Positions 45 to 23,679 of a DNA stretch of 26,805 nt are shown piece by piece. Both the position numbers and the translations under genes were made by a program. This stretch comes from Abditibacteriaceae bacterium (GTDB taxonomy: Bacteria > Armatimonadota > Abditibacteriia > Abditibacteriales > Abditibacteriaceae): the NCBI GenBank assembly GCA_031425655.1, contig JANPJS010000113.1, forward strand, positions 1 to 26,805, given 5' to 3'. Position 1 is the stretch's first letter, and every line of letters begins with the position of its first letter. Below the pieces are notes generated by a model. The model saw only the letters and a program-made list of their open reading frames with translations, searched no databases and was not told where the DNA came from.

Positions 45-1790
45 CTACATGTCGATGAAAATAGAGCAGAGGCGATTGCAGCTCGGGGTGCACATGGTGC
101 CCCGAATCGAGAAGCCGTCGGTGTAGATGCAGCTGCCACTCTTGCCGCTCAGAGTGCAGGTGGTGACCGTCAGCGTGCCGCGGTTGACGATGCCTCTGCT
201 ACCGTAGCTGATGGTCACAGTGCAGTTGGTAGCCGTCAGCGTGCCGCGGTTGACGATGCCGTAGAAATTGCGGCTCAGAGTGCAGTTGGTGGCCGTCAGC
301 GTGCCGTCGTTGTAGATGCCGCTGCCACTATTGCCGCTCAGGGTGCAGTTGGTGACTGTCACCGTGCCGCCGTCGTTGTTGATGCCGGAATCGCCGTTGC
401 TGATGGTCAGGCCGCTCAGAATCGCGGTCACTCCGGTTTCCACCGTGAAAATGTCGAACGCGGTAGGCGACGTGGCTTTGACCGTCAGCAGATTTGCGCC
501 GGGTCCGGTTACGGTGATCGTCGTGCTGAGGTTCGGCAACACGGTATCAAGCGAGATGGTTTGCGCGCTGCCGAAGACCGTCGTGTCGAAAGTGATGATG
601 CTGGTATTGGCATTGGCGTTGGCCACCGGGATCGCTTCGCGCAAGGTGCAGTCGAGCACGCCACAGATGCCGTCGTTGGTGTCGGCTTTGCTGTTGACCA
701 CAAAGTTTGGGCCACTTTGTGACGAGTCCGGGAAACTCGATTCGAAGGCGCCAATGTCCACTGTGCCGTGCTGAATGCGCGGGAAGCCGCTGCCGCGCTG
801 GTCGAAGGTCAGCGGTGTGGTGCCGTCAGCCTCGACGGCGAGCGCATTATCGCCCGCGTTGAACGCCGTGCCGCGTGTCGTCAGCGCAATGGTCAAGGTC
901 GGCCCGCCGTTGTTCTTGAGTCCTGCCGGGTCGAGGCCCGCCGCCGCCGCTGTGCCGCTGGTGATGTTGTTCCCGCCATTGGTGATGGTGCCCAAGGTAT
1001 TGGTCGCGTTGCCGGCGACGAGCGTGTTCTTGAGCGTCATCATCGTGCCGTAGTTGGCGATGCCGGTGCTGTTGCTGCTCAGGGTGCAGTTGGTAGCCGT
1101 CAGCGTGCTGAAGTTCTGGATGCCGGACTCGGTGTTGCCACTCATTGTGCAGTTGGTGACCGTGGTATCGAAGTTGTTGACGATGCCGAAGCTGTTGCTG
1201 CTCAACGTGCAGTCGGTGGCCGTCAGAACGCTTTCGTTGTTGATGCCGGACTGGGTGTTGCCGCTCAGGGTGCAGTTGGTGACCGTGGTCTCGAAGTTGT
1301 TGACGATGCCTGTGATACCGTCGCTGATGGTCAGTCCGCTGAGGGTCACCCTCACGCCATTGGCCACGGTGAAAATATCGAACGCGCCCTGCGCTGTGGC
1401 TTTGACCGTCAACAGGTTAGCGCCGGGCCCGGTGATGGTGATCGGCGTGCTCAGGCTCGGCAACACAGTATCGAGCGAGATGGACTGCGCGGCGGCGAAA
1501 ACCGTCGCGTCGAAAGTGATGGTGTCGGCATCCGTCGCGCCGTTGGCGGCATTGAGAGCGCCGCGCAAGTCGCAATCGTTGGCGGCGGCGGTGCAGGCGC
1601 TCACGTTGGTGTCGCCTGTGCGATCCACCTCGAAGGTCGCGGCGCGGGCGGTGCCACACAGCAGGCAGGACAACAGGCACAGGGCTGGCAGGCGAGTGAG
1701 TAGAAAACCGCCGCGCACCAGCGCCGCAACATAGGACAATGTTGCCGACAACGGCAACCGGCGGCAGGAGGCCGCATCCGAATTCTTCAT
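45..1790 (-). CDS. Secreted CSLREA-domain / parallel beta-helix repeat protein with choice-of-anchor Q domain; 3' end degenerate, true gene probably continues past window edge
   Basis: Signal-peptide-like N-terminus (..CGTARA/ATF). Two CSLREA-type modules (DCDLRGALNAAN; DCTLREAIPVAN). TxTNCTLSGN beta-helix repeats. Choice-of-anchor Q motifs NNGGPTLTIAL...DQRG..PR...VDIGAFE. The repeat resumes in frame after the TAG at 45-47. Confidence 0.8.
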   Translation of the reverse strand: MKNSDAASCRRLPLSATLSYVAALVRGGFLLTRLPALCLLSCLLCGTARAATFEVDRTGDTNVSACTAAANDCDLRGALNAANGATDADTITFDATVFAAAQSISLDTVLPSLSTPITITGPGANLLTVKATAQGAFDIFTVANGVRVTLSGLTISDGITGIVNNFETTVTNCTLSGNTQSGINNESVLTATDCTLSSNSFGIVNNFDTTVTNCTMSGNTESGIQNFSTLTATNCTLSSNSTGIANYGTMMTLKNTLVAGNATNTLGTITNGGNNITSGTAAAAGLDPAGLKNNGGPTLTIALTTRGTAFNAGDNALAVEADGTTPLTFDQRGSGFPRIQHGTVDIGAFESSFPDSSQSGPNFVVNSKADTNDGICGVLDCTLREAIPVANANANTSIITFDTTVFGSAQTISLDTVLPNLSTTITVTGPGANLLTVKATSPTAFDIFTVETGVTAILSGLTISNGDSGINNDGGTVTVTNCTLSGNSGSGIYNDGTLTATNCTLSRNFYGIVNRGTLTATNCTVTISYGSRGIVNRGTLTVTTCTLSGKSGSCIYTDGFSIRGTMCTPSCNRLCSIFIDM

Positions 1791-2853: not shown

Positions 2854-2892
2854 AAGGCGCAATCTTTTAACGTAAATTTGCGGAGAACACTC

Positions 2893-4413
2893 ATGGCTTA
2901 TTTAATCGGCATTGACATCGGCACCAGCGGCACCAAAGTCTTGGCAATTGACGAATCCGGCAAAGTCGCGGCGACGGCCTCGGCGGAATATCCACTTTCG
3001 ACGCCGCGCCCTTTATGGGCCGAACAGCGCGCCGAGGATTGGTGGGAAGCCACTTGCACCTGCTTGAAACAGGTTTTGCAAATCGTGCCGCCCGAAGACG
3101 TGGCCGGCGTCGGACTTTCGGGGCAAATGCACGGTTTAGTTATGCTCGACAGCGCGCATAACGTGATTCGCCCGGCGATTCTCTGGTGCGATCAGCGCAC
3201 GCAGGCGCAATGCGATTACATCACCGATACCGTCGGGCGCGATTTATTGGTTTCCGAGACCGCCAATCCGGTTTTAACCGGCTTCACGGCACCCAAAATC
3301 ATCTGGGTGCGCGACAACGAACCGCAAAATTATGACCGCGCCAAAATGCACCTTTTGCCCAAAGATTACGTGCGCTTCATGCTGACGGGCGAATTCGCAA
3401 CGGAAGTCTCCGACGCTTCGGGCACCAGCCTTCTTAATGTGCCCGAACGCCGCTGGAGCGACGCGGTTTTGAGCAAATTAGGCATCCCCAAAGAGCATTT
3501 GCCGAAGGTTTACGAAAGTTATGAAATCAGCGGCAAAATCAGCGCGCGTGGCGCACTTGCGACGGGACTGAAAGAAGGCACGCCGGTCGCGGGCGGCGGC
3601 GGTGATCAGGCGGCGGGCGCGGTCGGCAACGGCATCGTGCAAAGCGGCATTATTTCGGTCACAACCGGCACGTCGGGCGTAGTTTTCGCCTTCGCCGACA
3701 AGCCTGCGGTTGATCCACAATTGCGCGTTCACACCTTCTGCCACGCGGTTCCCGGCCAGTGGCACGTTATGGGCGTCATGCTTTCGGCGGGCGGCAGTTT
3801 GCGCTGGTATCGAGACACCTTAGCGCAAACCGAAAAGCAAGTCGCGGGCTTGATGGACATGGATCCGTATGAACTCATCACGCGCGAAGCCGCGACTGTC
3901 CCGCCGGGTGCCGAAGGTCTGCTCTTTTTGCCCTATTTGACCGGCGAACGCACGCCGCATCCCGACCCGCAGGCGCGCGGCGCTTTTGTCGGCCTGACGG
4001 TGCGGCATACCAAAGCGCACTTAGGCCGCGCGGTTTTGGAAGGCGTGGCGTTCGGCCTGCGCGATTCGCTGGAAATCCTCAAAAGCATGGGCGTTTCTAT
4101 CGGAAATGTGCGCGCCAGCGGCGGCGGAGCGCGCAGCGAAGTCTGGCGGCAAATTCAGACCGATATTTTCAATTTGCCGCTTACGACGATCAACATTGAC
4201 GAAGGCCCGGCATTGGGCGTGGCGCTCTTGGCCGGTGTGGGCGCTGGGCTTTACAGCAGCATCGAAGAAGCCTGCTCAACCGTGATTAAAGTTAGCGGCC
4301 AGACGCCGGTCAATGCCGAAGCCGCCGCACAATATGAAAAGTATTACGAGGTTTATCGCGCGCTTTATCCGGCGCTCAAAGACCAATTCGCGGCGATTGG
4401 CGACTTGGTTTAA
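2893..4413 (+). CDS. xylB: Xylulokinase (FGGY carbohydrate kinase)
   Basis: GIDIGTSGTK, GLSGQMHG, PAILWCDQR, LLPKDY, DASGT, GGGDQAAGA, LPYLTGERTP, GGGARS motifs. ATG 2893 follows GGAGA. Confidence 0.92.
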   Translation: MAYLIGIDIGTSGTKVLAIDESGKVAATASAEYPLSTPRPLWAEQRAEDWWEATCTCLKQVLQIVPPEDVAGVGLSGQMHGLVMLDSAHNVIRPAILWCDQRTQAQCDYITDTVGRDLLVSETANPVLTGFTAPKIIWVRDNEPQNYDRAKMHLLPKDYVRFMLTGEFATEVSDASGTSLLNVPERRWSDAVLSKLGIPKEHLPKVYESYEISGKISARGALATGLKEGTPVAGGGGDQAAGAVGNGIVQSGIISVTTGTSGVVFAFADKPAVDPQLRVHTFCHAVPGQWHVMGVMLSAGGSLRWYRDTLAQTEKQVAGLMDMDPYELITREAATVPPGAEGLLFLPYLTGERTPHPDPQARGAFVGLTVRHTKAHLGRAVLEGVAFGLRDSLEILKSMGVSIGNVRASGGGARSEVWRQIQTDIFNLPLTTINIDEGPALGVALLAGVGAGLYSSIEEACSTVIKVSGQTPVNAEAAAQYEKYYEVYRALYPALKDQFAAIGDLV

Positions 4414-4490
4414 CGAACCCGAAGCCTTGCCCAGAGGGCACCCAGCGACGGGCTAAAATTATCGCCCGTCGCTCACGCTCCGGGTTCGTT
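4412..4490. repeat. REP-like palindrome between convergent genes, carrying a 15-nt insertion in the left arm
   Basis: AACGAACCCGAAGC (4412-4425) pairs with GCTCCGGGTTCGTT (4477-4490). AGCGACGGGC (4444-4453) pairs with GCCCGTCGCT (4464-4473). Confidence 0.8.
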
Positions 4491-4503
4491 TTGGTGGCCT
4501 CGT

Positions 4504-5286
4504 TTACACCAAAGTTCCTTTCAGCCATACCACAGTGGTTTCCATCAGTTCTTTTTCCCAATCCAGCCGGTTGAATGTATGGTCAGCGCCCGCAATTATG
4601 TGCAGTTCCGATTGAAGCAGCGCCGCCTGATAATCGTATGCGTGATCGAGAGTCACAGTTGCATCAGCGTCGCCGTGAACCACGAGCGCCGGGTTGAAAT
4701 ACGAATCAAGCTCCTGCAAAGGGTCTACGCGCGCCGCGCTGTCGAAAAACGCCTGACTGACGATATTTCCATACCAATCCACCCAGCCGTGCGCCGCCAA
4801 AAACGCTTCGGCTTCGGGCGAAACGCGCTGTTTGAGCGAACGCATAATCGAAGCCGTCGCCGCCCACAAACACAGCGCCTTAATTTGTTCGCTGCGCCCT
4901 GCCGCGCACGCCGAAACCAAGCCGCCCAAACTCAAACCGATCAGCGCCAATTTGGTGCGATCCACACCCGGCTGCGCGCTTATCCAATGAATCACATTGA
5001 GCGCATCGGCGATTTCAGTTTCCGGCGTCGTATCCGCAAATTCGCCGTCGCTTTCGCCGCTGCCGACGAAATCGAAGCGCGCCACAAGGAAGCCCTCACT
5101 GGCCAAACGTCGCGCGGTTTTCACAAATAAGCGATGCGGCTCGACACGCGAGCCGGTAAAACCATGCCACATCATCACGGCGGGATAGCGGCGACTTGTC
5201 GAAAAGTCAGCGGGCCGATGAATCATGCCGCGCATCGTTTGCCCGCGCGATACGACTTCGGCGTAGATTTCGTTATTTTTGGTCAC
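4504..5286 (-). CDS. Alpha/beta-fold hydrolase (esterase / serine aminopeptidase S33-like)
   Basis: HGFTG oxyanion motif, RFDFVGSGESDG, nucleophile GLSLGG, HGDAD acid, GADH histidine. Confidence 0.9.
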   Translation of the reverse strand: MTKNNEIYAEVVSRGQTMRGMIHRPADFSTSRRYPAVMMWHGFTGSRVEPHRLFVKTARRLASEGFLVARFDFVGSGESDGEFADTTPETEIADALNVIHWISAQPGVDRTKLALIGLSLGGLVSACAAGRSEQIKALCLWAATASIMRSLKQRVSPEAEAFLAAHGWVDWYGNIVSQAFFDSAARVDPLQELDSYFNPALVVHGDADATVTLDHAYDYQAALLQSELHIIAGADHTFNRLDWEKELMETTVVWLKGTLV

Positions 5287-5334
5287 GAGCGAATTTTAAT
5301 CAAAACGCGTGCGATAGGGCTAAAATCCTGCGTT

Positions 5335-5455
5335 TGAATGGGACGCGGAGCTTCGCCACGCGGGTTTCACGCGCAGGTTTTCGCCGATCAATTCAACGAA
5401 CAACAGCGTTAATCTGCGCATGAAATCCGCGTAGCGAAGCTCCGCGTTCTATTCA
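5335..5455. repeat. Long REP/REPIN-like inverted repeat between divergent genes
   Basis: 45-nt arms 5335-5379 and 5411-5455, 39/45 complementary. Each arm has an internal hairpin (CGCGTAGCGAAGCTCCGCG-type). Confidence 0.85.
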
Positions 5456-5473
5456 GAGGCTAAACTGCCGCGC

Positions 5474-5953: not shown

Positions 5954-6629
5954 CAACGCCGAAAACATGATTTCACTGCGCGGCATTAGCAAAATCTATT
6001 CTGTCGAAGACCGATTGGTGCAGGCTTTAGGCGGCGTGGATTTAGACGTGCCGCGCGGCCAGTTTTTGGCGCTCGTCGGACGCAGCGGCTGTGGCAAATC
6101 CACGCTGCTCAATTTATTGGGCGGGCTGGACAAACCCAGCGACGGCAGTTTGCAAGTCAACGGCGTCGAAGTGCCGACTTTGAGCGAAAATCTGCTGACG
6201 GAATATCGCCGCTCGACCGTCGGCATCGTGTTTCAGTTTTTCAATTTAATGCCGCTGCTCACCGTTTTGGAAAATGCCACGCTGCCGGCGTTGTTGGCCG
6301 GAAAAAACCGCGCCGAAGTCGCAAAACGCGCCGAAGAATTGTTAGACGCTGTTGGATTGGGCGAACGCTTGCATCAGCAAGCCTCGCTGCTATCGGGCGG
6401 CGAAATGCAGCGCGTGGCCGTGGCGCGGGCGCTGATTAACGACCCGCCGCTGATTTTAGCCGACGAGCCGACCGGAAATCTCGATTCCAAAAGCGCCGAA
6501 GTGGTTTTAACAGCCCTGCGCCAACTGACCAAAAGCGGCGAAAAAACCGTGGTCATGGTTACGCACTCGCGCGAAGCCGCCGCCATCGCCGACATTGCGC
6601 GCGAAATGCGCGACGGAAAATTCGTTTAA
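5940..6629 (+). CDS. ABC transporter ATP-binding protein (LolD/MacB-like); start uncertain (5928/5940/5967)
   Basis: Walker A GRSGCGKS, Q-loop IVFQFFNL, signature LSGGEMQRVAVARAL, Walker B ILADEPTGNLD, H-loop VTH. Confidence 0.9.
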   Translation: MKPADNAENMISLRGISKIYSVEDRLVQALGGVDLDVPRGQFLALVGRSGCGKSTLLNLLGGLDKPSDGSLQVNGVEVPTLSENLLTEYRRSTVGIVFQFFNLMPLLTVLENATLPALLAGKNRAEVAKRAEELLDAVGLGERLHQQASLLSGGEMQRVAVARALINDPPLILADEPTGNLDSKSAEVVLTALRQLTKSGEKTVVMVTHSREAAAIADIAREMRDGKFV

Positions 6630-6696
6630 CCACAAAAAGCACAAAAGGCACAAAAAACGGTTTTCTTTGTGCCTTTTGTGCTTTTTGTGGTTAAAC
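6624..6696. repeat. Perfect 31-bp inverted repeat of 9-nt CACAAAA(A/G)G units between convergent genes
   Basis: GTTTAACCACAAAAAGCACAAAAGGCACAAA (6624-6654) and its exact reverse complement (6666-6696). Contains both stop codons. Confidence 0.92.
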
Positions 6697-7965: not shown

Positions 7966-8078
7966 GTCCCCCCGATTAAAATCGGGGTCTAATGATACAA
8001 AGTCCGCCTGCGCGGACTCAAAAAATAGTCCGCGCAGGCGGACTTCGTAACCATAGCGCCCCATTTCAATGGGGTGCG
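7966..8078. repeat. Composite REP-like element (two inverted double-hairpin units)
   Basis: AAGTCCGCCTGCGCGGACT (8000-8018) and AGTCCGCGCAGGCGGACTT (8027-8045) form a perfect IR. Flanking hairpins CCCCGATTAAAATCGGGG (7970-7987) and CGCCCCATTTCAATGGGGTG (8057-8076). Confidence 0.85.
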
Positions 8079-10885: not shown

Positions 10886-10997
10886 CTTTCAATGGAACAC
10901 GGGTTTTCACGGAAACGGCACAGATGAACACGGATTTTTTAGAATTGATCCGCGAAATCCGTGGCCGTTTCCGTGAAAACCCGTGTTCCGTTGAAAG
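10886..10997. repeat. Long inverted repeat of ~9-10-nt CACGG(A/G)-type units downstream of GH89
   Basis: Arms 10886-10919 and 10964-10997 are 33/34 complementary. Internal CACAGATGAACACGGAT units. Confidence 0.88.
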
Positions 10998-11475
10998 AGA
11001 ACGCTACAAACAACAAAGGCGCAGAGAGCTTAAAAACTCTCTGCGCCTTTGTGTTTTGGCGGTGAGCTACTTCGTGGGCGAGATTGGCTTCGCGACGGAG
11101 GAAGTTTTCAACAGTAACGCGCGAAACGCCGATGCGACGTGCTAACTCGGTTTGGGTTAGGCCGGTTTCTTCCAGAATGCCGCCCGCGACTTCGCCCGGC
11201 GTCGAAGGCCGCCGCGTCATGTGTTGCAATTGCTCGATTTTTTGCGGTTCCGTTGCCATATTTTTCAGGCCAACAAGCGGCTGGCCGGCGCCTGTCCAAT
11301 GCACCGTGGCGGCATCCGTCCATTTGTCCCCCGACGAGCACACGCTAAAATACGGATCGTGCGTCACGAGCGGCACCGAAGGAATGCGTCCGGTTAACGC
11401 AGCGTTCTGTGCGCTCAGTGGCGCAGCGAAAATCAACGACAAAGTTGTGAGAAGCAGTAGGAAAAGACGTGACAT
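10939..11475 (-). pseudogene. Chimeric remnant: signal peptide + DUF4964-like N-terminus (glutaminase-like/DUF5127 family) fused in frame to a truncated HigA-type HTH antitoxin
   Basis: aa 1-70: signal peptide then PSVPLVTHDPYFSV....DKWTD..T.HWTG. From ATG 11259: RRPSTPGEV...LEETGLTQTELARRIGVSRVTV (HigA-like). The tail is translated repeat DNA. Confidence 0.65.
11001..11067. repeat. Second palindromic element (CACCGC...AAAGGCGCAGAG type)
   Basis: ACAAAGGCGCAGAGAG (11013-11028) and CTCTCTGCGCCTTTGT (11037-11052) form a perfect 16-bp IR. Resembles the half-element at 26718-26748. Confidence 0.75.
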
Positions 11476-15549: not shown

Positions 15550-15924
15550 ATGAGCGATCAACCGCCCCTTTTCGACGACTTCGCCGCGCCGCCCAAGCAG
15601 CGCGGCGATGCCGACGCTGCAACGGATGACACCATCATCGCGCAGGTTTACGAAATCGCCCGCGCTATCCCGCCGGGCCGCGTTTTGAGCTACGGCGCCG
15701 TTGGAGCGCGCTGCCAACCGCCAATTAGCGGCTACATTTGCGGGCGCATCATGATTCATTCGCACGACGCCGTGCCGTGGTGGCGCGTCGTCGGCAAAGA
15801 CGGCACGCTGCGTATTTCCAAACGCAATCCCCTGCTCGCCGCCGACCAACGCGCGAAATTAGAAGCCGAAGGCGTCGAATTCGACGAAGCAGGGCGGGTA
15901 AAAATGCAAAGTTTTGAGTTATGA
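15550..15924 (+). CDS. Alkyltransferase-like (ATL) protein, MGMT family
   Basis: IPPGRVLSYG, PWWRVV (Trp in place of the PCHRV Cys), Q...LEAEGV.F. Confidence 0.88.
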   Translation: MSDQPPLFDDFAAPPKQRGDADAATDDTIIAQVYEIARAIPPGRVLSYGAVGARCQPPISGYICGRIMIHSHDAVPWWRVVGKDGTLRISKRNPLLAADQRAKLEAEGVEFDEAGRVKMQSFEL

Positions 15925-15983
15925 ATTTTGAGTTTTGAGTTGCGGATTCTGTTAACTCAAAACTCAAAATTCATAACTCAAAA
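15912..15983. repeat. Perfect 30-bp inverted repeat of TTTTGAG-type heptamers between convergent genes
   Basis: TTTTGAGTTATGAATTTTGAGTTTTGAGTT (15912-15941) and its exact reverse complement (15954-15983). Confidence 0.92.
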
Positions 15984-15989
15984 TTCGCA

Positions 15990-18098
15990 TCAATGCGCTT
16001 TTAAAGCCGCAGCGAGCACACCGTAAGCGACCATTAAGGCGCTGAGCCACGCCGCGCAGATGTGCAGCAGACGCGGCGAGAAAACATCAACGCGACGGCG
16101 AAACGTGCCGTAGGCGGCGCCAACGATGCAGCCAAGAAAAAGCCAGGCTCCCGCCGCGAATTCGCGGGCAAGCGGCGCGAAAAGCGGATGCAGAACTTCA
16201 TCGCCGGTCACGAGAATCGTGTTGCCCCACACTGCCGCCGCCACACCGCACAAAAGAGACAGCGCCGTGCCTCCGAATATCAGGCCGCAACTGCGCCGCC
16301 TTTGCGCTTCGGCGGCCACCAAAAAAAATAATATAAGCGTCAACGCGAAGCCGAAAAGCGGCGCGGTGGGCAGCCAGCGCAAGCCGTCGCGTTGTTGCAG
16401 CCAGCCCCAGCCGGCGCCGTGCGTTTGCATCGGCCAAACGCGCAAAAACTGCCCCGCTGCCATGCCCAGCATCGCCCAACTCAGCACCGTCAGAAACGGC
16501 GCCAGAGTTTGCTTTAAGCGCACGCGCGCCGAAAACGGCACGCGTAGCTCGCCCGCCGAGCAATCTATGACCAGTTCGCCCTGCTGCTTGCCCAACGACC
16601 CGCCGCGTCCCTGCCGGGCGTGAAACGCAATCGGCACCACGCTTTCGCCGTCGAAAGCCGCATCGAATTCCAGCGCGGGATGCACGGCGCGCACCAGACC
16701 AAAAAGGTGGCCGCGTCCGGGGTTGGAAAGGCGCAATTTGATCGTGCTGCGCTGGCCCGGCTCCAAAGTGCCGAAGTCGAGATGCGCCGGCTCGACGCGC
16801 AATCGCGGCACTTCGACCACGCTGGTCGTCTGCAAAAAGCCTTCGAGCGCCTGCGCCGGGCGGCTGGCGAACTCGGCGCGCATTTGTCGCGCGCGGGCGC
16901 TCATCTCGAAGTGTCCGGCTCGGTCGAGCCACGCCGCGAGCGTGCCTGCCATCAGCATCTCGCGCGCCTCGGAGGGAAATTGGTCGGCCAACAGCGCGAA
17001 CGATTGCAAATCCAGCGCACGAGCGCCATTGCGAAACTTCAAAGCGTCTTCGCCCGGCGCGGCGGTGGTTTGCGGCTCACCCGTCGGCGTGCCGGCAACC
17101 GGCGACGGTGCGTTCAGCGCATCCAAAGCGGCGACGAAAGAGGTGCCGTCCTGCGGGCGCCGCGACGGATCGAGGTGAATCGCGCGCAAAATCAAGGCAT
17201 CCAGCGCGGGCGGAATTGTGCTGTTGAAATAAGACGGCTTATGGCCGCGCATCAAAGCCAAATCCTGCGGCTCGGTCGGGTCGCGTCCGCATAAAACGGC
17301 ATAAAGCGTCATGCCCAGCGCGTGAATATCGCTGCGCGCGTCGGGCAGGCGGCGTTCGTTGAACGATTCCGGCGCGTAGCCCGGCGTGCCTCCGCCCTGC
17401 GTGTGACGATGAACGCGCGTCGAATAGCCCTCCTGCGTCCCGCTTTCGCCCGCGATGCCGAAATCGAGCAAAACCGCTTGGTCGCCGCGTGTTCGCAAAC
17501 GAATGTTTTCCGGTTTCACGTCCCGATGAATCCAACCGCGCTCATGAATAATGGCCAAAGCGCCCGCGATGTCGCGCGCGATACGCAACGCCCGCGCTAC
17601 GGGCAAGGCGCCGCCCGCAAGACGCGCGGCTTCACTCAAATTCGGGCCGTCCACGTATTCCATCATCAAATAATGGCGCGACGACAACGAAATCAGCGGC
17701 TTTATATGCTGAGGACAGCGATCTTCAAAATCCAGTCCGCACTGAGGGCAGATGTTCCACTGGCCGTGATGCGGCTGATAATGGCCCGAAACGATGTGAG
17801 GATGGCGCAGATGCGATAAATGCGTGGCTTCAAGGCGAAATTGGCGCAGCGCCGGCTCGCGTTCGGGCGTAGTCGTTGCCGCGTCGTCTAAAACGTGAAG
17901 CTCTTTTACTGCCACATGAACATTGAGTTCGCGGTCGCAGCACAGATAAACGGTGCCGAACGCGCCGGCGCCCAACGGTCGCTCGACTTCGTAACGGCCT
18001 TGAATTTTATCCCCGATGCGATGCTGCAAAAAAGCGATCATGGGCAACGTAAGGCAGTGTGGACACTGGCCGTAATCAGCGCAAGTCATGGCTACCAA
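15990..18098 (-). CDS. Hanks-type Ser/Thr protein kinase with Ig-like domain and C-terminal multi-TM region; start uncertain
   Basis: GAGAFG, VAVKE, HRDVKPEN, DFG, GTPGYAPE, SDIHALG. PRLRVEPAHLDFG..LSNPGRGHL.G Ig-like segment. About 5 hydrophobic helices at the C-terminus. Confidence 0.88.
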   Translation of the reverse strand: MVAMTCADYGQCPHCLTLPMIAFLQHRIGDKIQGRYEVERPLGAGAFGTVYLCCDRELNVHVAVKELHVLDDAATTTPEREPALRQFRLEATHLSHLRHPHIVSGHYQPHHGQWNICPQCGLDFEDRCPQHIKPLISLSSRHYLMMEYVDGPNLSEAARLAGGALPVARALRIARDIAGALAIIHERGWIHRDVKPENIRLRTRGDQAVLLDFGIAGESGTQEGYSTRVHRHTQGGGTPGYAPESFNERRLPDARSDIHALGMTLYAVLCGRDPTEPQDLALMRGHKPSYFNSTIPPALDALILRAIHLDPSRRPQDGTSFVAALDALNAPSPVAGTPTGEPQTTAAPGEDALKFRNGARALDLQSFALLADQFPSEAREMLMAGTLAAWLDRAGHFEMSARARQMRAEFASRPAQALEGFLQTTSVVEVPRLRVEPAHLDFGTLEPGQRSTIKLRLSNPGRGHLFGLVRAVHPALEFDAAFDGESVVPIAFHARQGRGGSLGKQQGELVIDCSAGELRVPFSARVRLKQTLAPFLTVLSWAMLGMAAGQFLRVWPMQTHGAGWGWLQQRDGLRWLPTAPLFGFALTLILFFLVAAEAQRRRSCGLIFGGTALSLLCGVAAAVWGNTILVTGDEVLHPLFAPLAREFAAGAWLFLGCIVGAAYGTFRRRVDVFSPRLLHICAAWLSALMVAYGVLAAALKAH

Positions 18099-20343: not shown

Positions 20344-20904
20344 TTAAAACTTCACCGCGACCGGGCCACGCGCGGCGGGTTCTTCGATTTCAAAGTATTC
20401 GGCGCTTTTGAAGCCACCCATGCCTGCGATAATGCTGGACGGAAACATTTCGACAGCCGTATTCAATTCGCGCACGTTGGCGTTGTAAAAGCGCCGCGCC
20501 TGCGAAATGCGCGTTTCGGTTTCGCCAAGCTCGACTTGCAATTGATTGAAATTCGAGTTCGCCTTCAAATCGGGATAGCTTTCAGTCAAGGCGAAAAGCT
20601 GGCGCAGCGTGCCGCTGAGAGCGTCTTCGGTTTGCGCCTGCTGGGCCGGCGTGCCCTGATTGGTGGACGCAGCATTGCGCGCCGCAATCACGGCTTCGAG
20701 CGTGCCGCGCTCGTGCGTGGCGTAGCCTTTGACGGTTTCCACAAGGTTGGGAATCAAGTCGTAGCGACGGCGCAATTCGGTATCAATGGCCGACCAGCTT
20801 TCCTTCACGTTCTGGCGCAGACGCACCAGCTTGTTATACATCCCGATGAAAACGAACGCCAGCAAAACGCCGACAACGACAATAATGAGAAATGTTGGAC
20901 TCAC
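20344..20904 (-). CDS. lemA: LemA family protein
   Basis: N-terminal TM, YNKLV.LR..V..SWS.ID..L.RRYDLIPNLVETVKGYA.HE, ESYPDLKAN.NF, ARRFYN..V. GTG 20904 with GGAGG SD and TGaTACAAT at 20924-20932. Confidence 0.95.
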   Translation of the reverse strand: MSPTFLIIVVVGVLLAFVFIGMYNKLVRLRQNVKESWSAIDTELRRRYDLIPNLVETVKGYATHERGTLEAVIAARNAASTNQGTPAQQAQTEDALSGTLRQLFALTESYPDLKANSNFNQLQVELGETETRISQARRFYNANVRELNTAVEMFPSSIIAGMGGFKSAEYFEIEEPAARGPVAVKF

Positions 20905-20968
20905 AATTAAGCCTCCGACCTCCATTGTATCACAAGAAGCGCGCCGTTCTTCGGGCTATAATAACCGC

Positions 20969-22693
20969 GTGAACATCACGATTCGTCGTTTTTTCCCATT
21001 AATTTTGCTGCTGTGTCTTGCGCCGGCCCGCGCCGAAGTCATTCGCTCGTTCGACACGGCCATTCGCCTCAACCGCGACACCTCGTTAGACGTGCAGGAA
21101 ACGATTTCTTACGATTTTGAAGGGGCGCAGCGCCACGGCATCAAACGCATTATTCCGATTCGCTACGACCGCAACGGCGGCACTTACACGGTTTATCTCG
21201 ATTTACAAAGCGTAACCGACGAAAAAGGCATCGCGCAGCCCTATTCGACCTCGAAGCAAGGCCGCGATCTCAACATCAAAATCGGCGATGCCGACACGCT
21301 GATTAGCGGCTTGCACACTTACGTTTTGCGCTATCATTTGCGCCGCGCCGTGAACTTTTATGAAGACGCGCCGGAGGTTTACTGGAATGCCACCGGCAAC
21401 GAATGGCCTTGCCCGATACAGCAAGCATCGGCGCGCTTTTTCCCGCCGCCGGGCGTGACTGCGGAGCAAATCCGCACCAAATGCTTTATCGGCCCGCCCG
21501 GCTCGCAGGCGCCGGGGCAGGTTCAAGTGCAGGCCGACAACGTCACTTTTTACACCGGCTCACTTCCGCCGGGTTCGGGCCTGACTTTCGTGGCCGGACT
21601 GCCGAAAAACAGCGTGGTGCCACCTTCATCGCTGCAAAACCTCGTGTGGATTTTGGCCGACTGGTGGCCGGCGTTTCTGATTCCGCTTTTGGCCCTGACT
21701 TCGATTTTAGCGATGTGGAGCGCGACGGGCCGCGACGTGGACGGCAATCAGGCCGTCGCCGTCGAATGGAATCCGCCCAAGGAGCTTTCGCCCGCCGAAG
21801 TCGGCACCCTTGTGGACGAACGCTGCGACATGGCCGATATGGTTTCCACGCTGATTGACCTTGCGGCGCGCGGTTATTTGGTCATCGAAGAAATGGAAAC
21901 CGAAAAATTCCTCTTTCTTTCGAGTCGCGATTATCGCTTCATCAAGCAGCCGCGCGAATACGACCCAACCGGCGACGGACTGGCGCCGCACGAGCGCGAA
22001 TTCATGCGCGGCCTGTTTTCGGGCCGCGAGCAAGTCACGCTTTCAAGCCTCAAAAACAACTTTTACACGCATTTGCCGGGCATTCAGAACGCGATTTACG
22101 CATCTTTAGTCGCCAAAAGACTGTTCAACCAGAACCCGGATTCGGTGCGCTCTTCTTACGTGGGAATCGGCTTCGTGTTGATCGTTTTCGGCATCATTGC
22201 GGGCGTCATCGGCGCTAACTCAGGCAATCTGGCGTGGGGCATCGGTCTGGCGCTTTCGGGCCTGATCGTGCTGCTTTCGGCCCGCGCCATGCCCGCAAAA
22301 ACCGCCAAAGGCTCCCGATTGCACCGCGAATCGCTCGGTTTCGCGCGCTTTATCAAACTGGCCGAAAAAGACCGCATTCGCGTTTTGGCGCAGGACGACC
22401 CGACGATTTTCGGACGCCTTTTGCCTTACGCGATGGTTTTGGGCGTGGCCGACGATTGGGCCGACAAATTCGCCGGTTTGCTGACTGAACCGCCCGACTG
22501 GTATTCGAGCCGCACGCCGTATTCCACTTTCAACCCGCATTTCTTTGTGCGCGATTTAGGCAGCGGCATGAACACGATGGGCAACACCTTTTCCTCGCAG
22601 CCGCAATCTACCGGCGGCAGTGGCGGCAGCGGTTTTTCGGGCGGCGGCGGCAGCGGCGGTGGTTTCGGCGGCGGCGGCGGCAGCTCTTGGTAA
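20969..22693 (+). CDS. DUF2207 family membrane protein
   Basis: Signal peptide, E.IRSFD..I.L..D..L.V.ETI.YDF....RHGI.R, YWNATG..W, PP..LSPAE.G.L.D, LIDLAARGYL.I, LLPYAMVLGV, C-terminal GGGFGGGGGSSW. Confidence 0.9.
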   Translation: MNITIRRFFPLILLLCLAPARAEVIRSFDTAIRLNRDTSLDVQETISYDFEGAQRHGIKRIIPIRYDRNGGTYTVYLDLQSVTDEKGIAQPYSTSKQGRDLNIKIGDADTLISGLHTYVLRYHLRRAVNFYEDAPEVYWNATGNEWPCPIQQASARFFPPPGVTAEQIRTKCFIGPPGSQAPGQVQVQADNVTFYTGSLPPGSGLTFVAGLPKNSVVPPSSLQNLVWILADWWPAFLIPLLALTSILAMWSATGRDVDGNQAVAVEWNPPKELSPAEVGTLVDERCDMADMVSTLIDLAARGYLVIEEMETEKFLFLSSRDYRFIKQPREYDPTGDGLAPHEREFMRGLFSGREQVTLSSLKNNFYTHLPGIQNAIYASLVAKRLFNQNPDSVRSSYVGIGFVLIVFGIIAGVIGANSGNLAWGIGLALSGLIVLLSARAMPAKTAKGSRLHRESLGFARFIKLAEKDRIRVLAQDDPTIFGRLLPYAMVLGVADDWADKFAGLLTEPPDWYSSRTPYSTFNPHFFVRDLGSGMNTMGNTFSSQPQSTGGSGGSGFSGGGGSGGGFGGGGGSSW

Positions 22694-22699
22694 ATTAAC

Positions 22700-22790
22700 A
22701 GTTTTGAGTTTTGAGTTTTGAATTTTGAGTTAAATTTGCTCAATTCAAAACTCAAAACTCCGGGTGCCCTTTGGGCGGATTCAAAACTCA
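22700..22790. repeat. TTTTGAG-heptamer inverted repeat (same family as 15912-15983), interrupted by a 15-nt insertion
   Basis: Left arm (TTTTGA[G/A])x4 at 22700-22731. Right arm AATTCAAAACTCAAAACTC-[CGGGTGCCCTTTGGGCGG]-ATTCAAAACTCA. Confidence 0.85.
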
Positions 22791-22791
22791 T

Positions 22792-23679
22792 ATGCTTAAT
22801 CCCAATAATTTTTGGCCGCCGCGCAACTTCGGCGCGGTAGATCACGAACTGGCCGGCTTTGAAACGGCGCGCTTCGTCGTGATTCCCGTGCCTTACGATT
22901 CGACGACGACGTGGCGCGGCGGCACGCGCGAAGGCCCGCTCGCCATCATTGACGCTTCGATGAACATGGAGCTGTTCGACCGCGAATTGGGCCGCGAAAT
23001 CTGCGAAGTGGGAATTCACACGACGGACGATGTGGAGCCGGTGATGTCCGGGCCGGAGAAAATGGCCGTGCGCGTCACCGAAGTCATCGGAGAAGTCATG
23101 TTTTCCGGCAAAATCCCGGTTATGCTCGGCGGCGAGCATTCGCTGACTTTCGGCGCCGTCTGCGCGGCTTTGAAACTCGATCTCCCCGGAAAATTATCGG
23201 TTTTGCAATTGGACGCGCACACCGATTTGCGCGACAGCTACGGCGGCACCAAGTTCGGCCACGGCTGCGTGGCGCGCCGCATGAGCGAACTGCCCGGAGT
23301 CGAAATCGTGCAAGTTGGGCTGCGTTCGACTTCACAGGATGAATTCAACAGCGTGCCACCGAATGTGAAGCAATTCTGGGCCGAAGATGTGCTGGGCGAC
23401 TTTTCCGGGGCGCTTCAGCAGATTCTCGATAGCCTGGGCGACGATGTTTACATCACTTTCGACGTAGATTCCTGCGACCCGTCGTGGATGCCCGATACGG
23501 GCACGCCCGAACCCGGCGGGCTGAGCTTTTATCAAGTGCGCGACATTTTGCGCGCCGTGTGCCACGCCAAGCGCGTGCGCGGCGTGGATTGCGTGGAGCT
23601 TATTGGCGGCCATCCGGCCAGCGCTTTTGCGGTCGCGCGCCTGCTTTATAAAACGATGGGCTATTTAAGCGAACGGTAA
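22792..23679 (+). CDS. speB: Agmatinase (ureohydrolase family)
   Basis: PVPYDSTTTWRGGTREGP, LGGEHS, LDAHTDLRD, GHGC, ITFDVD..DP..MP.TGTPEPGG, D.VEL. Confidence 0.9.
   Translation: MLNPNNFWPPRNFGAVDHELAGFETARFVVIPVPYDSTTTWRGGTREGPLAIIDASMNMELFDRELGREICEVGIHTTDDVEPVMSGPEKMAVRVTEVIGEVMFSGKIPVMLGGEHSLTFGAVCAALKLDLPGKLSVLQLDAHTDLRDSYGGTKFGHGCVARRMSELPGVEIVQVGLRSTSQDEFNSVPPNVKQFWAEDVLGDFSGALQQILDSLGDDVYITFDVDSCDPSWMPDTGTPEPGGLSFYQVRDILRAVCHAKRVRGVDCVELIGGHPASAFAVARLLYKTMGYLSER

Follow-up and report, generated by a model that had tools for sequence, protein, structure and literature searches.

A micro-element of about 20 nucleotides, apparently inserted many times into hairpin repeats of Abditibacteriaceae genomes

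The genome of an Abditibacteriaceae bacterium (G000: 5.98 Mb, 327 contigs, 97% complete) carries a short hairpin, here called the micro-element, which is almost certainly a genuine unit inserted repeatedly into other sequences and which likely ranks among the smallest mobile DNA units. Its genome-wide copies follow the consensus CGGGYGCCC-TYT-GGGC(A)GG plus one variable base, a length of 19–20 nt; 277 exact cores are found in G000 when C or T is allowed at core position 4, and 378 copies with a broader pattern. The stretch of this genome that was analyzed, referred to here as the window, comprises 26,805 nt of contig JANPJS010000113.1 and holds two micro-element matches against 0.12 expected from shuffles. 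Movement was inferred from junction comparison of genomes, which agrees with the original prediction that a tiny hairpin had been placed repeatedly into unrelated hairpin repeats without target duplication.

The unit and its two copies in the window

The commonest 15-mer, GGGTGCCCTCTGGGC, occurs 101 times in G000 against 0.021 expected under an order-5 Markov model, an over-representation in keeping with the original prediction, and its TTT variant occurs 26 times against 0.028 expected under the same model. Around 273 copies of the 15-mer the preceding base is C in 257, and the following bases are A (239), G (265), and G (230), before a mixed position; these conserved flanking bases show the unit to be longer than the 15 nt first proposed, a size that fits neither window copy (20 and 19 nt).

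A search for CGGG-spacer-hairpin-GG recovered variants at the same sites and with the same geometry, namely an ACCC/GGGT stem, a GCTTGC loop, and spacers of T, C, A, or GC, so that variant lengths span 19–24 nt. The outer stem pair is G-C in 247 of 282 copies, A-T in 29, G-T in 2, and unpaired in 4, covariation being confined to this one pair, and each of the two loops, TYT and GCTTGC, occurs at the same sites in combination with any of the three end types. What is conserved is the pair of ends (CGGG … GG) and the 4-bp stem, whereas the loop is swappable; stem covariation and loop swaps fit a recognition of ends and fold in DNA copies. The isolated hairpin folds modestly (z −1.2 to −2.1). The core of the 24-nt variant was found in 62 metagenome stretches with 52 distinct contexts, the next base being mostly C or G. 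It should be noted that this variant (L289–L350) is widespread in metagenomes, including sequences that by eye resemble group II intron and IS genes, and that its junction rule there is seemingly different.

Copy 1 lies on the minus strand at 4425–4444 (20 nt), with boundaries set by its partner arm and by host-family copies with empty alleles. The letters on which the original prediction was built are borne out: 4426–4443 reads CTTGCCCAGAGGGCACCC, the partner arm has CAC at 4474–4476, and the core at 4429–4443 is the commonest 15-mer on the minus strand. Its mini-hairpin, TGCCC-TCT-GGGCA (4428–4440, minus strand), is preceded by the 5' tail and followed by the 3' tail and the terminal variable base G; copy 1 deviates from the consensus in its first base (T for C) and in its tail (AAG for AGG). 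The empty allele in the partner arm is the pentamer TCACG (4473–4477, plus strand), which ends in G and is replaced by the element in the other arm. Three other members of this host family have TTACG or TCACG in both arms, and one other is occupied at the same site. The host palindrome is a REP-like doublet at 4412–4490 (fold z = −5.1), across which an FGGY kinase gene (2878–4413, plus strand) and an alpha/beta-hydrolase gene (4504–5286, minus strand), both assigned by Pfam, converge. Its repeat family flanks Y1/RAYT genes in two relatives (L252, L247), and in G002 and G003 the orthologous kinase gene is not followed by the palindrome.

Copy 2, the second copy of the original prediction (14/15 identical at 22762–22776), is confirmed and extends over 22761–22779 on the plus strand as a 19-nt haplotype with a GCCC-TTT-GGGC hairpin, the tail GG, and a terminal A. 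It sits in the 3' arm of a TTTTGAG-heptamer hairpin (22700–22789; fold z = −6.1), downstream of a DUF2207 gene (Pfam; 20786–22693, plus strand). Beyond the palindrome lies an arginase-family gene (Pfam), which the ORF list calls from a TTG at 22771 inside the element; its true start is likely the ATG at 22792.

Logan contigs of the probable source run, which are not independent data, match 3900–4452 and 4425–5000 with 0 differences, and three other sequencing runs scarcely cover the site. A search of the window against Rfam matched no family. Elsewhere in the window, six further intergenic palindromic repeats of different families are free of the element (5330–5460, 6624–6696, 7971–8074, 10886–10997, 11007–11058, and 15899–16003), and an ORF at 45–1790 (minus strand), with 60–66-nt internal repeats and a 283-nt internal duplication that is 75% identical, probably encodes a repeat-rich surface protein.

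Junctions, hosts, and distribution

To recover empty alleles, the flanks of each copy were used as probes. Exact flanks gave an empty allele for 134 of 321 copies, and allowing one mismatch per flank gave one for 235 of 322, so that the empty alleles which the original prediction called for do exist. The net gain of +15 that it proposed holds for 94 of the 134; 17 show +14, and copies are therefore not always frame-preserving. Strict frame preservation fails both on these many +14 copies and on the transposase genes broken by insertion. The one-mismatch pass, which had no preference for 5-nt/G solutions, gave 87 distinct junction types with 5-nt empty alleles, and every one of them ends in G. 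A broader pass yielded empty alleles for 252 of 344 copies, with a deleted length of 5 in 213, 4 in 16, 6 in 20, and 7 in 3; here G is the last base in 49 of 50 site clusters, compared with a G content of 32% in the flanks, with ambiguous ends settled in favor of 5-nt/G and with related host sub-families still contained in the 50 clusters. The junction data thus describe the event as the replacement of NNNNG by a 19- or 20-nt unit without duplication; an equivalent reading of the same data in G000 is that 4 nt are removed, the target G is retained, and one base is added behind it. Beyond the invariant G, the target shows a weak G at −3 (32/50 vs. 35%), and no requirement for left-flank homology was seen in the junction comparison. 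Copy 1 obeys the rule. Copy 2 does not: its host most often has the 4-nt AAAA as empty allele (47 times), and no listed allele ends in G.

The terminal base is A in 56 of the 87 junction types, G in 15, T in 15, and C in 1. Of 16 site events with terminal T in G000, 15 have a purine next (Fisher p = 2e-5 for T), and of 15 with terminal G, 13 have a pyrimidine. Each of the four common haplotypes is seen with several terminal bases, which indicates that this base is not simply inherited, and we infer that it is set at insertion. Copying of the terminal base from the partner arm was rejected, as perfect palindromes still give A. Type IA topoisomerases follow a −4 C rule; this rule was considered and dropped, being off by one base. 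Outside G000, T precedes a purine in 13 of 13 junctions, whereas the pattern of G before a pyrimidine was not replicated (5/12), and 22 of 32 empty alleles end in G in what is a small, noisy library with ambiguous tails counted twice. Two Chloroflexota genomes have looser tails, including AG, AGC, and AGT, which partly follow the target base, and four copies nested within the element itself, where they replace CCCTY; three targets end in C. The weaker G outside G000 and these Chloroflexota targets point to a lineage-specific G rule. A Thermomicrobia genome also has the element nested in its own stem-loop, so that its 5' and 3' ends are repeated in runs, with tails unlike those of G000 (L269–L288; G043, G045).

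Most copies reside in other repeats: flanks repeated at least 10 times surround 296 of the 378 copies, whereas 1770 of 16520 random G sites have such flanks. Palindromic repeats of many unrelated families serve as hosts, and the element mostly occupies their 3' arm. Among 250 copies the partner arm lies upstream in 78, downstream in 21, on both sides in 1, and was not found in 150; the corresponding figures for 181 distinct junctions are 53, 20, 2, and 106 (p = 1e-4). Occupancy of both arms is common, with 4 to 20 partner arms showing element spacing. Transposase genes form another group of hosts, confirmed by Pfam in 10 of 12 tested (IS3-type integrase core or HTH, or DDE_Tnp_1), and identical conserved transposase codons are occupied in different genomes; by eye, families such as ISAs1, IS1, and IS256 seem to be concerned. 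Genes for tRNA in arrays are likewise hosts. In the arrays L110 (G000:C61:85-845) and L001:2885-4618 the element is on the noncoding strand of the tRNA genes, and the latter array adjoins a gene that by eye resembles the slipin family.

Insertions of five residues in frame, as the original prediction anticipated, are seen in tyrosyl-tRNA synthetase (TyrRS) and in two Calx-beta repeats. The TyrRS copy (L104:98-1369, G000:C139) reads LDGAAQGAPGGLF, where orthologues have LDGTGGLF, LDGENGWF, and LDGKAGLF; the five-residue gain comes from a decayed copy and is missing in 3/3 orthologues. The Calx-beta repeats show their gain relative to paralogues. Among gene hosts, orientation relative to transcription is not consistent.

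The core was found in 23 of 27 Abditibacteriaceae genomes, that is, in 22 of 26 besides G000, one of them a single-contig genome; after the 277 exact cores of G000 the richest are G001 (146) and G002 (51), and G008 has 4. Records named as Abditibacteriaceae carry the same element in the same hosts, and a stricter pattern found it in 0/16 sampled relatives outside the family. Three Chloroflexota genomes hold 64, 45, and 65 copies among the matches listed, letter for letter and including the C/T variants, and the two phyla share the same four haplotypes. Two Opitutales have 1 and 4 copies among the matches listed, some of the single matches being due to chance. The low-copy relatives have the element chiefly within a single amplified host, transposase genes, or tRNA arrays; one or two amplified hosts account for most of the copies inspected in G012, G014, and G023. 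G008 has a dispersed family of 26-bp perfect palindromes (L003–L007), of which 5/5 fetched copies carry the element in the 3' arm. Exact element sequences also occur in Bacillota (L126, L186, L171, L173), in structured regions resembling mobile-element ends, and may be chance matches or true copies.

In favor of an artefact of library, adapter, or assembly, 83 of 326 copies lie within 300 nt of a contig end, as is expected for repeats. Such an origin is nevertheless close to inconceivable given the presence of the core in 22 other family genomes, including the single-contig one, the lineage-specific haplotypes, the covarying stems, the in-frame protein insertion, and an IS110 with matching predicted guides; the agreement of the (not independent) Logan contigs points the same way.

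A nested IS110, the search for a mover, and candidate mechanisms

A multicopy IS110 is nested in the micro-element. In G000, 9/9 left ends and 10/11 right ends abut the element at a CT core, and several host families are involved; one further left-end copy is a 31-nt remnant. Because the G000 copies (L044, L050, L055, L059, L062) break at contig ends, full-length copies were read in relatives (L053, L046), where they encode a 331–332-aa protein with DEDD_Tnp_IS110 and Transposase_20 domains; copies within the micro-element were found in G016 (5/5 inspected, of 10), G006 (1), G018 (2), and G003 (1). When eight left ends are aligned, two stretches, GGGTGCCC and CCCAGAG, are seen to match one half of the target each, and in a sister IS of G005 (L058, L061) both stretches change together with its different target, another repeat. 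These predicted guides would covary with the target in the bridge-RNA logic set out in the available sections of PMC11208160. The left end has no Rfam match for a bridge RNA, and its predicted RNA folds with z = −1.5. In G003 (C15), a second left-end copy is split by another IS-like element of ~1.3 kb (L051/L056).

The 15-nt core equals the IS110 target site, and with nearly all ends at the CT core and predicted guides that match both core halves, the micro-element could be read as a product or footprint of this IS110. We regard this as extremely improbable. The left end is present in only 6 of 27 family genomes, one of the six with other guides and another target; a close transposase (E <= 1e-40; search made with no positive control) was found in none of five element-rich genomes, namely G011, G009, and the three Chloroflexota; and the variants with an ACCC/GGGT stem are not matched by the guides. 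These observations make the IS110 a parasite of the element rather than its source. Moreover, the guides vary while the micro-element is constant, and excision of IS110 is scarless and requires a pre-existing target, according to the accessible part of PMC11208160.

None of the families searched (RT, IS110, Y1/RAYT, and four repeat-partner families) tracks the micro-element. RVT_1 has no match in G000, G001, and G002, the genomes richest in cores (277, 146, and 51), is found in 21 of 27 family genomes, and is present in the element-free G004, G007, and G041, which speaks against the reverse transcriptase that the original prediction named among possible movers. An RT ORF of ~500 aa was observed in most family genomes and not in G000, G001, and G002. 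The HUH/RAYT-like nuclease that it also named may be the mover, and none was found: Y1_Tnp is present in 25 of 27 genomes, including the element-free G004, and undetected in G008 with its 4 cores, and the 26 loci inspected around Y1 matches (part of all matches) have their own repeats or IS ends on either side, and the micro-element flanks none of them. One RAYT-like gene among these loci is itself interrupted. DEDD_Tnp_IS110, present in 13 of 27 genomes (E <= 1e-12), does not track the element. The repeat-partner families DUF559, PDDEXK_3, 23S_rRNA_IVP, and GIY-YIG were each searched in five genomes, and none was both present in the two with the element and absent from the three without.

No master or template locus was found among 40 low-copy loci from G005, G006, G008, G012, G013, G014, G023, and G024, and no long autonomous element with the same ends, the sole recurrent long sequence being the IS110. 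No recurring gene was apparent by eye in 20 pairs of copies 250–1500 nt apart, and among viral contigs there were 9 loci with one match each. Strand counts were ~17 leading versus 18 lagging in G011 (by hand, with noisy replichores) and 68 versus 60 in G000, showing no replication-strand bias, although amplification of the hosts would blur one.

Our preferred reading, plausible though held at slightly less than even confidence, is a nonautonomous mobile element moved by a trans-acting, HUH/Y1-like enzyme that cuts and joins single strands. New copies would arise from existing DNA copies: the enzyme would bind a folded single strand of the element, an exposed target strand would be cut after the G and again five bases upstream, and the element would be joined in place of the excised pentamer. 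Since the donor would retain its other strand, copies would increase in number. A mismatch opposite the target's C would be repaired or bypassed, which would set the terminal base, mostly as A, sometimes as G or T, and rarely as C; host repeats would then amplify occupied sites, and arm-to-arm conversion would fill both arms. This choice rests on the sharp 5' boundary, on hosts that are likely single-stranded, and on an anatomy (tetranucleotide, short spacer, small stem) like that of the TnpA-REP substrates of PMC8266576. The portion of that paper available describes how TnpA-REP cuts single-stranded DNA hairpins and reseals them, a tetranucleotide on the 5' side of the stem serving as guide even where the stem has only 5 bp; applied to CGGG, the same guide rule would select CC rather than G, which counts against an HUH/Y1-like enzyme, as do the Y1_Tnp distribution, the lack of strand bias, the weaker G rule outside G000, and the copy 2 exception. 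Both the 5-nt loss and the G are unlike known Y1 rules, and template switching and conversion-only spread are therefore real rivals. Y1 insertions are not known to delete target bases.

Nick-primed template switching, rather unlikely in our estimate, would start from a target nicked by a nuclease or transposase and trimmed by ~5 bases, where a host or repair polymerase copies the folded element and adds an untemplated base before rejoining. The order of terminal bases (A > G = T >> C; 56, 15, 15, and 1 of 87) resembles untemplated or abasic-site addition. The deleted length does vary from 4 to 7, the looser Chloroflexota tails depend in part on the target base, and the host DNAs, namely transposase genes and repeats next to RAYT genes, are cut by enzymes of their own. 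Yet the 5' boundary is sharp (C in 257/273) with no left-flank homology requirement seen, a 5-nt mode in 213/252 copies is tight for exonucleolytic trimming, and the same sequence with four haplotypes in two phyla suggests specific recognition. It is also conceivable, if improbable, that there is no dedicated mover and that a few ancient insertions spread by gene conversion and short-homology annealing between repeats, and across species on IS elements and REP cassettes. Common both-arm occupancy, the copies of G012, G014, and G023 in one or two amplified hosts, and the same conserved transposase codons occupied across genomes would all follow; against this stand the 50 G000 clusters (not all of them independent), which share the 5-nt/G geometry in many unrelated hosts with no shared flanks, and the occupied single-copy TyrRS and tRNA-array sites. 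A stepping-stone test by flank similarity was discarded, since related host sub-families confounded it.

A reverse transcriptase that writes the element from a master RNA template would account for the constant short sequence and the adenine-like variable position, and the sister variant occurs in metagenome sequences that resemble group II introns by eye; we nonetheless consider this mechanism very improbable, given that G000 (97% complete), G001, and G002 lack RVT_1 and the element-free G004, G007, and G041 have it, that no conserved template locus was seen in the low-copy genomes inspected, and that there is no consistent orientation to transcription.

Beyond the preferred cut-and-join reading, a bolder proposal is doubtful though worth stating: an undescribed enzyme class may perform an overwriting insertion, exchanging a 5-base single-stranded segment for a 19- to 24-base hairpin at nearly any exposed G, with the micro-element as a cross-phylum hyperparasite. 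If true, this hyperparasite would disable IS elements, REP cassettes, and tRNA arrays and add five-residue loops to proteins, and it would have become so abundant and stable that an RNA-guided IS110 could redirect its guides to this target.

Relation to known mobile repeats

How very short bacterial repeats move has been an open question since the cyanobacterial small dispersed repeats (SDRs). The junction rules described here (~50 sites in one genome, 5-nt loss, G, and a target-dependent last base) are sharp enough to be used as oligonucleotide substrates with a sequencing readout, and a replacement reaction this small and free of duplication would be novel chemistry for DNA and might serve as a tool. 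The element also affects its genomes: transposase genes are disrupted by it, an essential synthetase has gained five residues, and an IS110 finds in it a landing site.

MITEs are marked by terminal inverted repeats and target-site duplication; unlike them, the micro-element shows no duplication, and target bases are lost. IS200/IS605 elements insert 3' of a fixed tetra- or pentanucleotide with no target loss; unlike derivatives of these, the micro-element has a target with one invariant base and a weak G at −3, and 5 nt are lost. It differs from retrons, DGRs, and other RT-templated systems in that the element-rich G000 has no RVT_1 and that no template locus was seen among the low-copy loci inspected. 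The palindromic elements of Rickettsia are ~100–150 nt long. According to the available text of PMC3733652, they place palindromic DNA in frame within conserved proteins. The micro-element, by contrast, adds five residues, and most of its gene insertions break transposase genes. One of its host families resembles SRM-type repeats. Ssn nucleases act in a sequence- and structure-specific manner on single-stranded SRM/NTS hairpins, and in the accessible part of PMC11893778 this action is cutting only; small GIY-YIG genes also occur in element-free genomes, and the micro-element alone was not seen flanking such a gene.

The likeness to REP/REPIN sequences, as far as the available parts of PMC8266576, PMC3733652, and PMC3116915 describe them, lies in a short stem-loop with a conserved tetranucleotide 1–2 nt 5' of the stem, in high copy number, in a mostly intergenic position with some in-frame copies, and in serving as an IS110 target. 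Unlike those sequences, the micro-element has the tag CGGG instead of GTAG or CGTC, flanks no cognate TnpA-REP gene (0/26 Y1 loci), and is nested inside REPs; its junction, inferred from the comparison of alleles, falls after G (49/50 sites) with target bases lost, unlike the REP/RAYT cleavage at CT/CA reported there. Bridge recombinases of the IS621-type IS110 group target REPs, and the nested IS110 shares with them, in what PMC11208160 offers in its accessible sections, the DEDD_Tnp_IS110 and Transposase_20 domains, the CT core, a noncoding left end, and predicted left and right guides. In contrast to these, its target is a 19- to 20-nt unit that itself lies within other repeats, giving three layers of repeat, micro-element, and IS110.

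Our literature search, which had subscription papers mostly outside its scope, found no description of this micro-element. The small dispersed repeats SDR1–8 of Nostocaceae were reportedly described by Elhai et al. in 2008, in Genome Res 18:1484, and their hairpins are said to be supported by compensatory changes. Very small mobile hairpin repeats being known from Nostocaceae, the class of the micro-element is not itself undescribed, and the broad sense in which the original prediction spoke of an undescribed system does not stand. In the portions available of the papers that cite this work (PMC2884548, PMC4390886, PMC5861425, PMC3116915), SDRs are ~20 bp, dispersed, and thought to be mobile by means of an unknown mover, and SDR5 is precisely inserted into HIP1. 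Like these, the micro-element is small (19–24 nt with its variants), dispersed, and present in high copy (277 exact cores), is precisely inserted in other repeats with empty alleles and no duplication, and has a hairpin with a compensatory change, in one pair (outer pair G-C 247 and A-T 29 of 282). Unlike the SDRs of Nostocaceae, it occurs in Armatimonadota and Chloroflexota, and its 5-nt/G replacement, target-dependent terminal base, and IS110 parasite do not appear in the SDR descriptions within the accessible parts of these citing papers. Compared by description rather than by sequence, the cyanobacterial SDRs would be the closest known kind.
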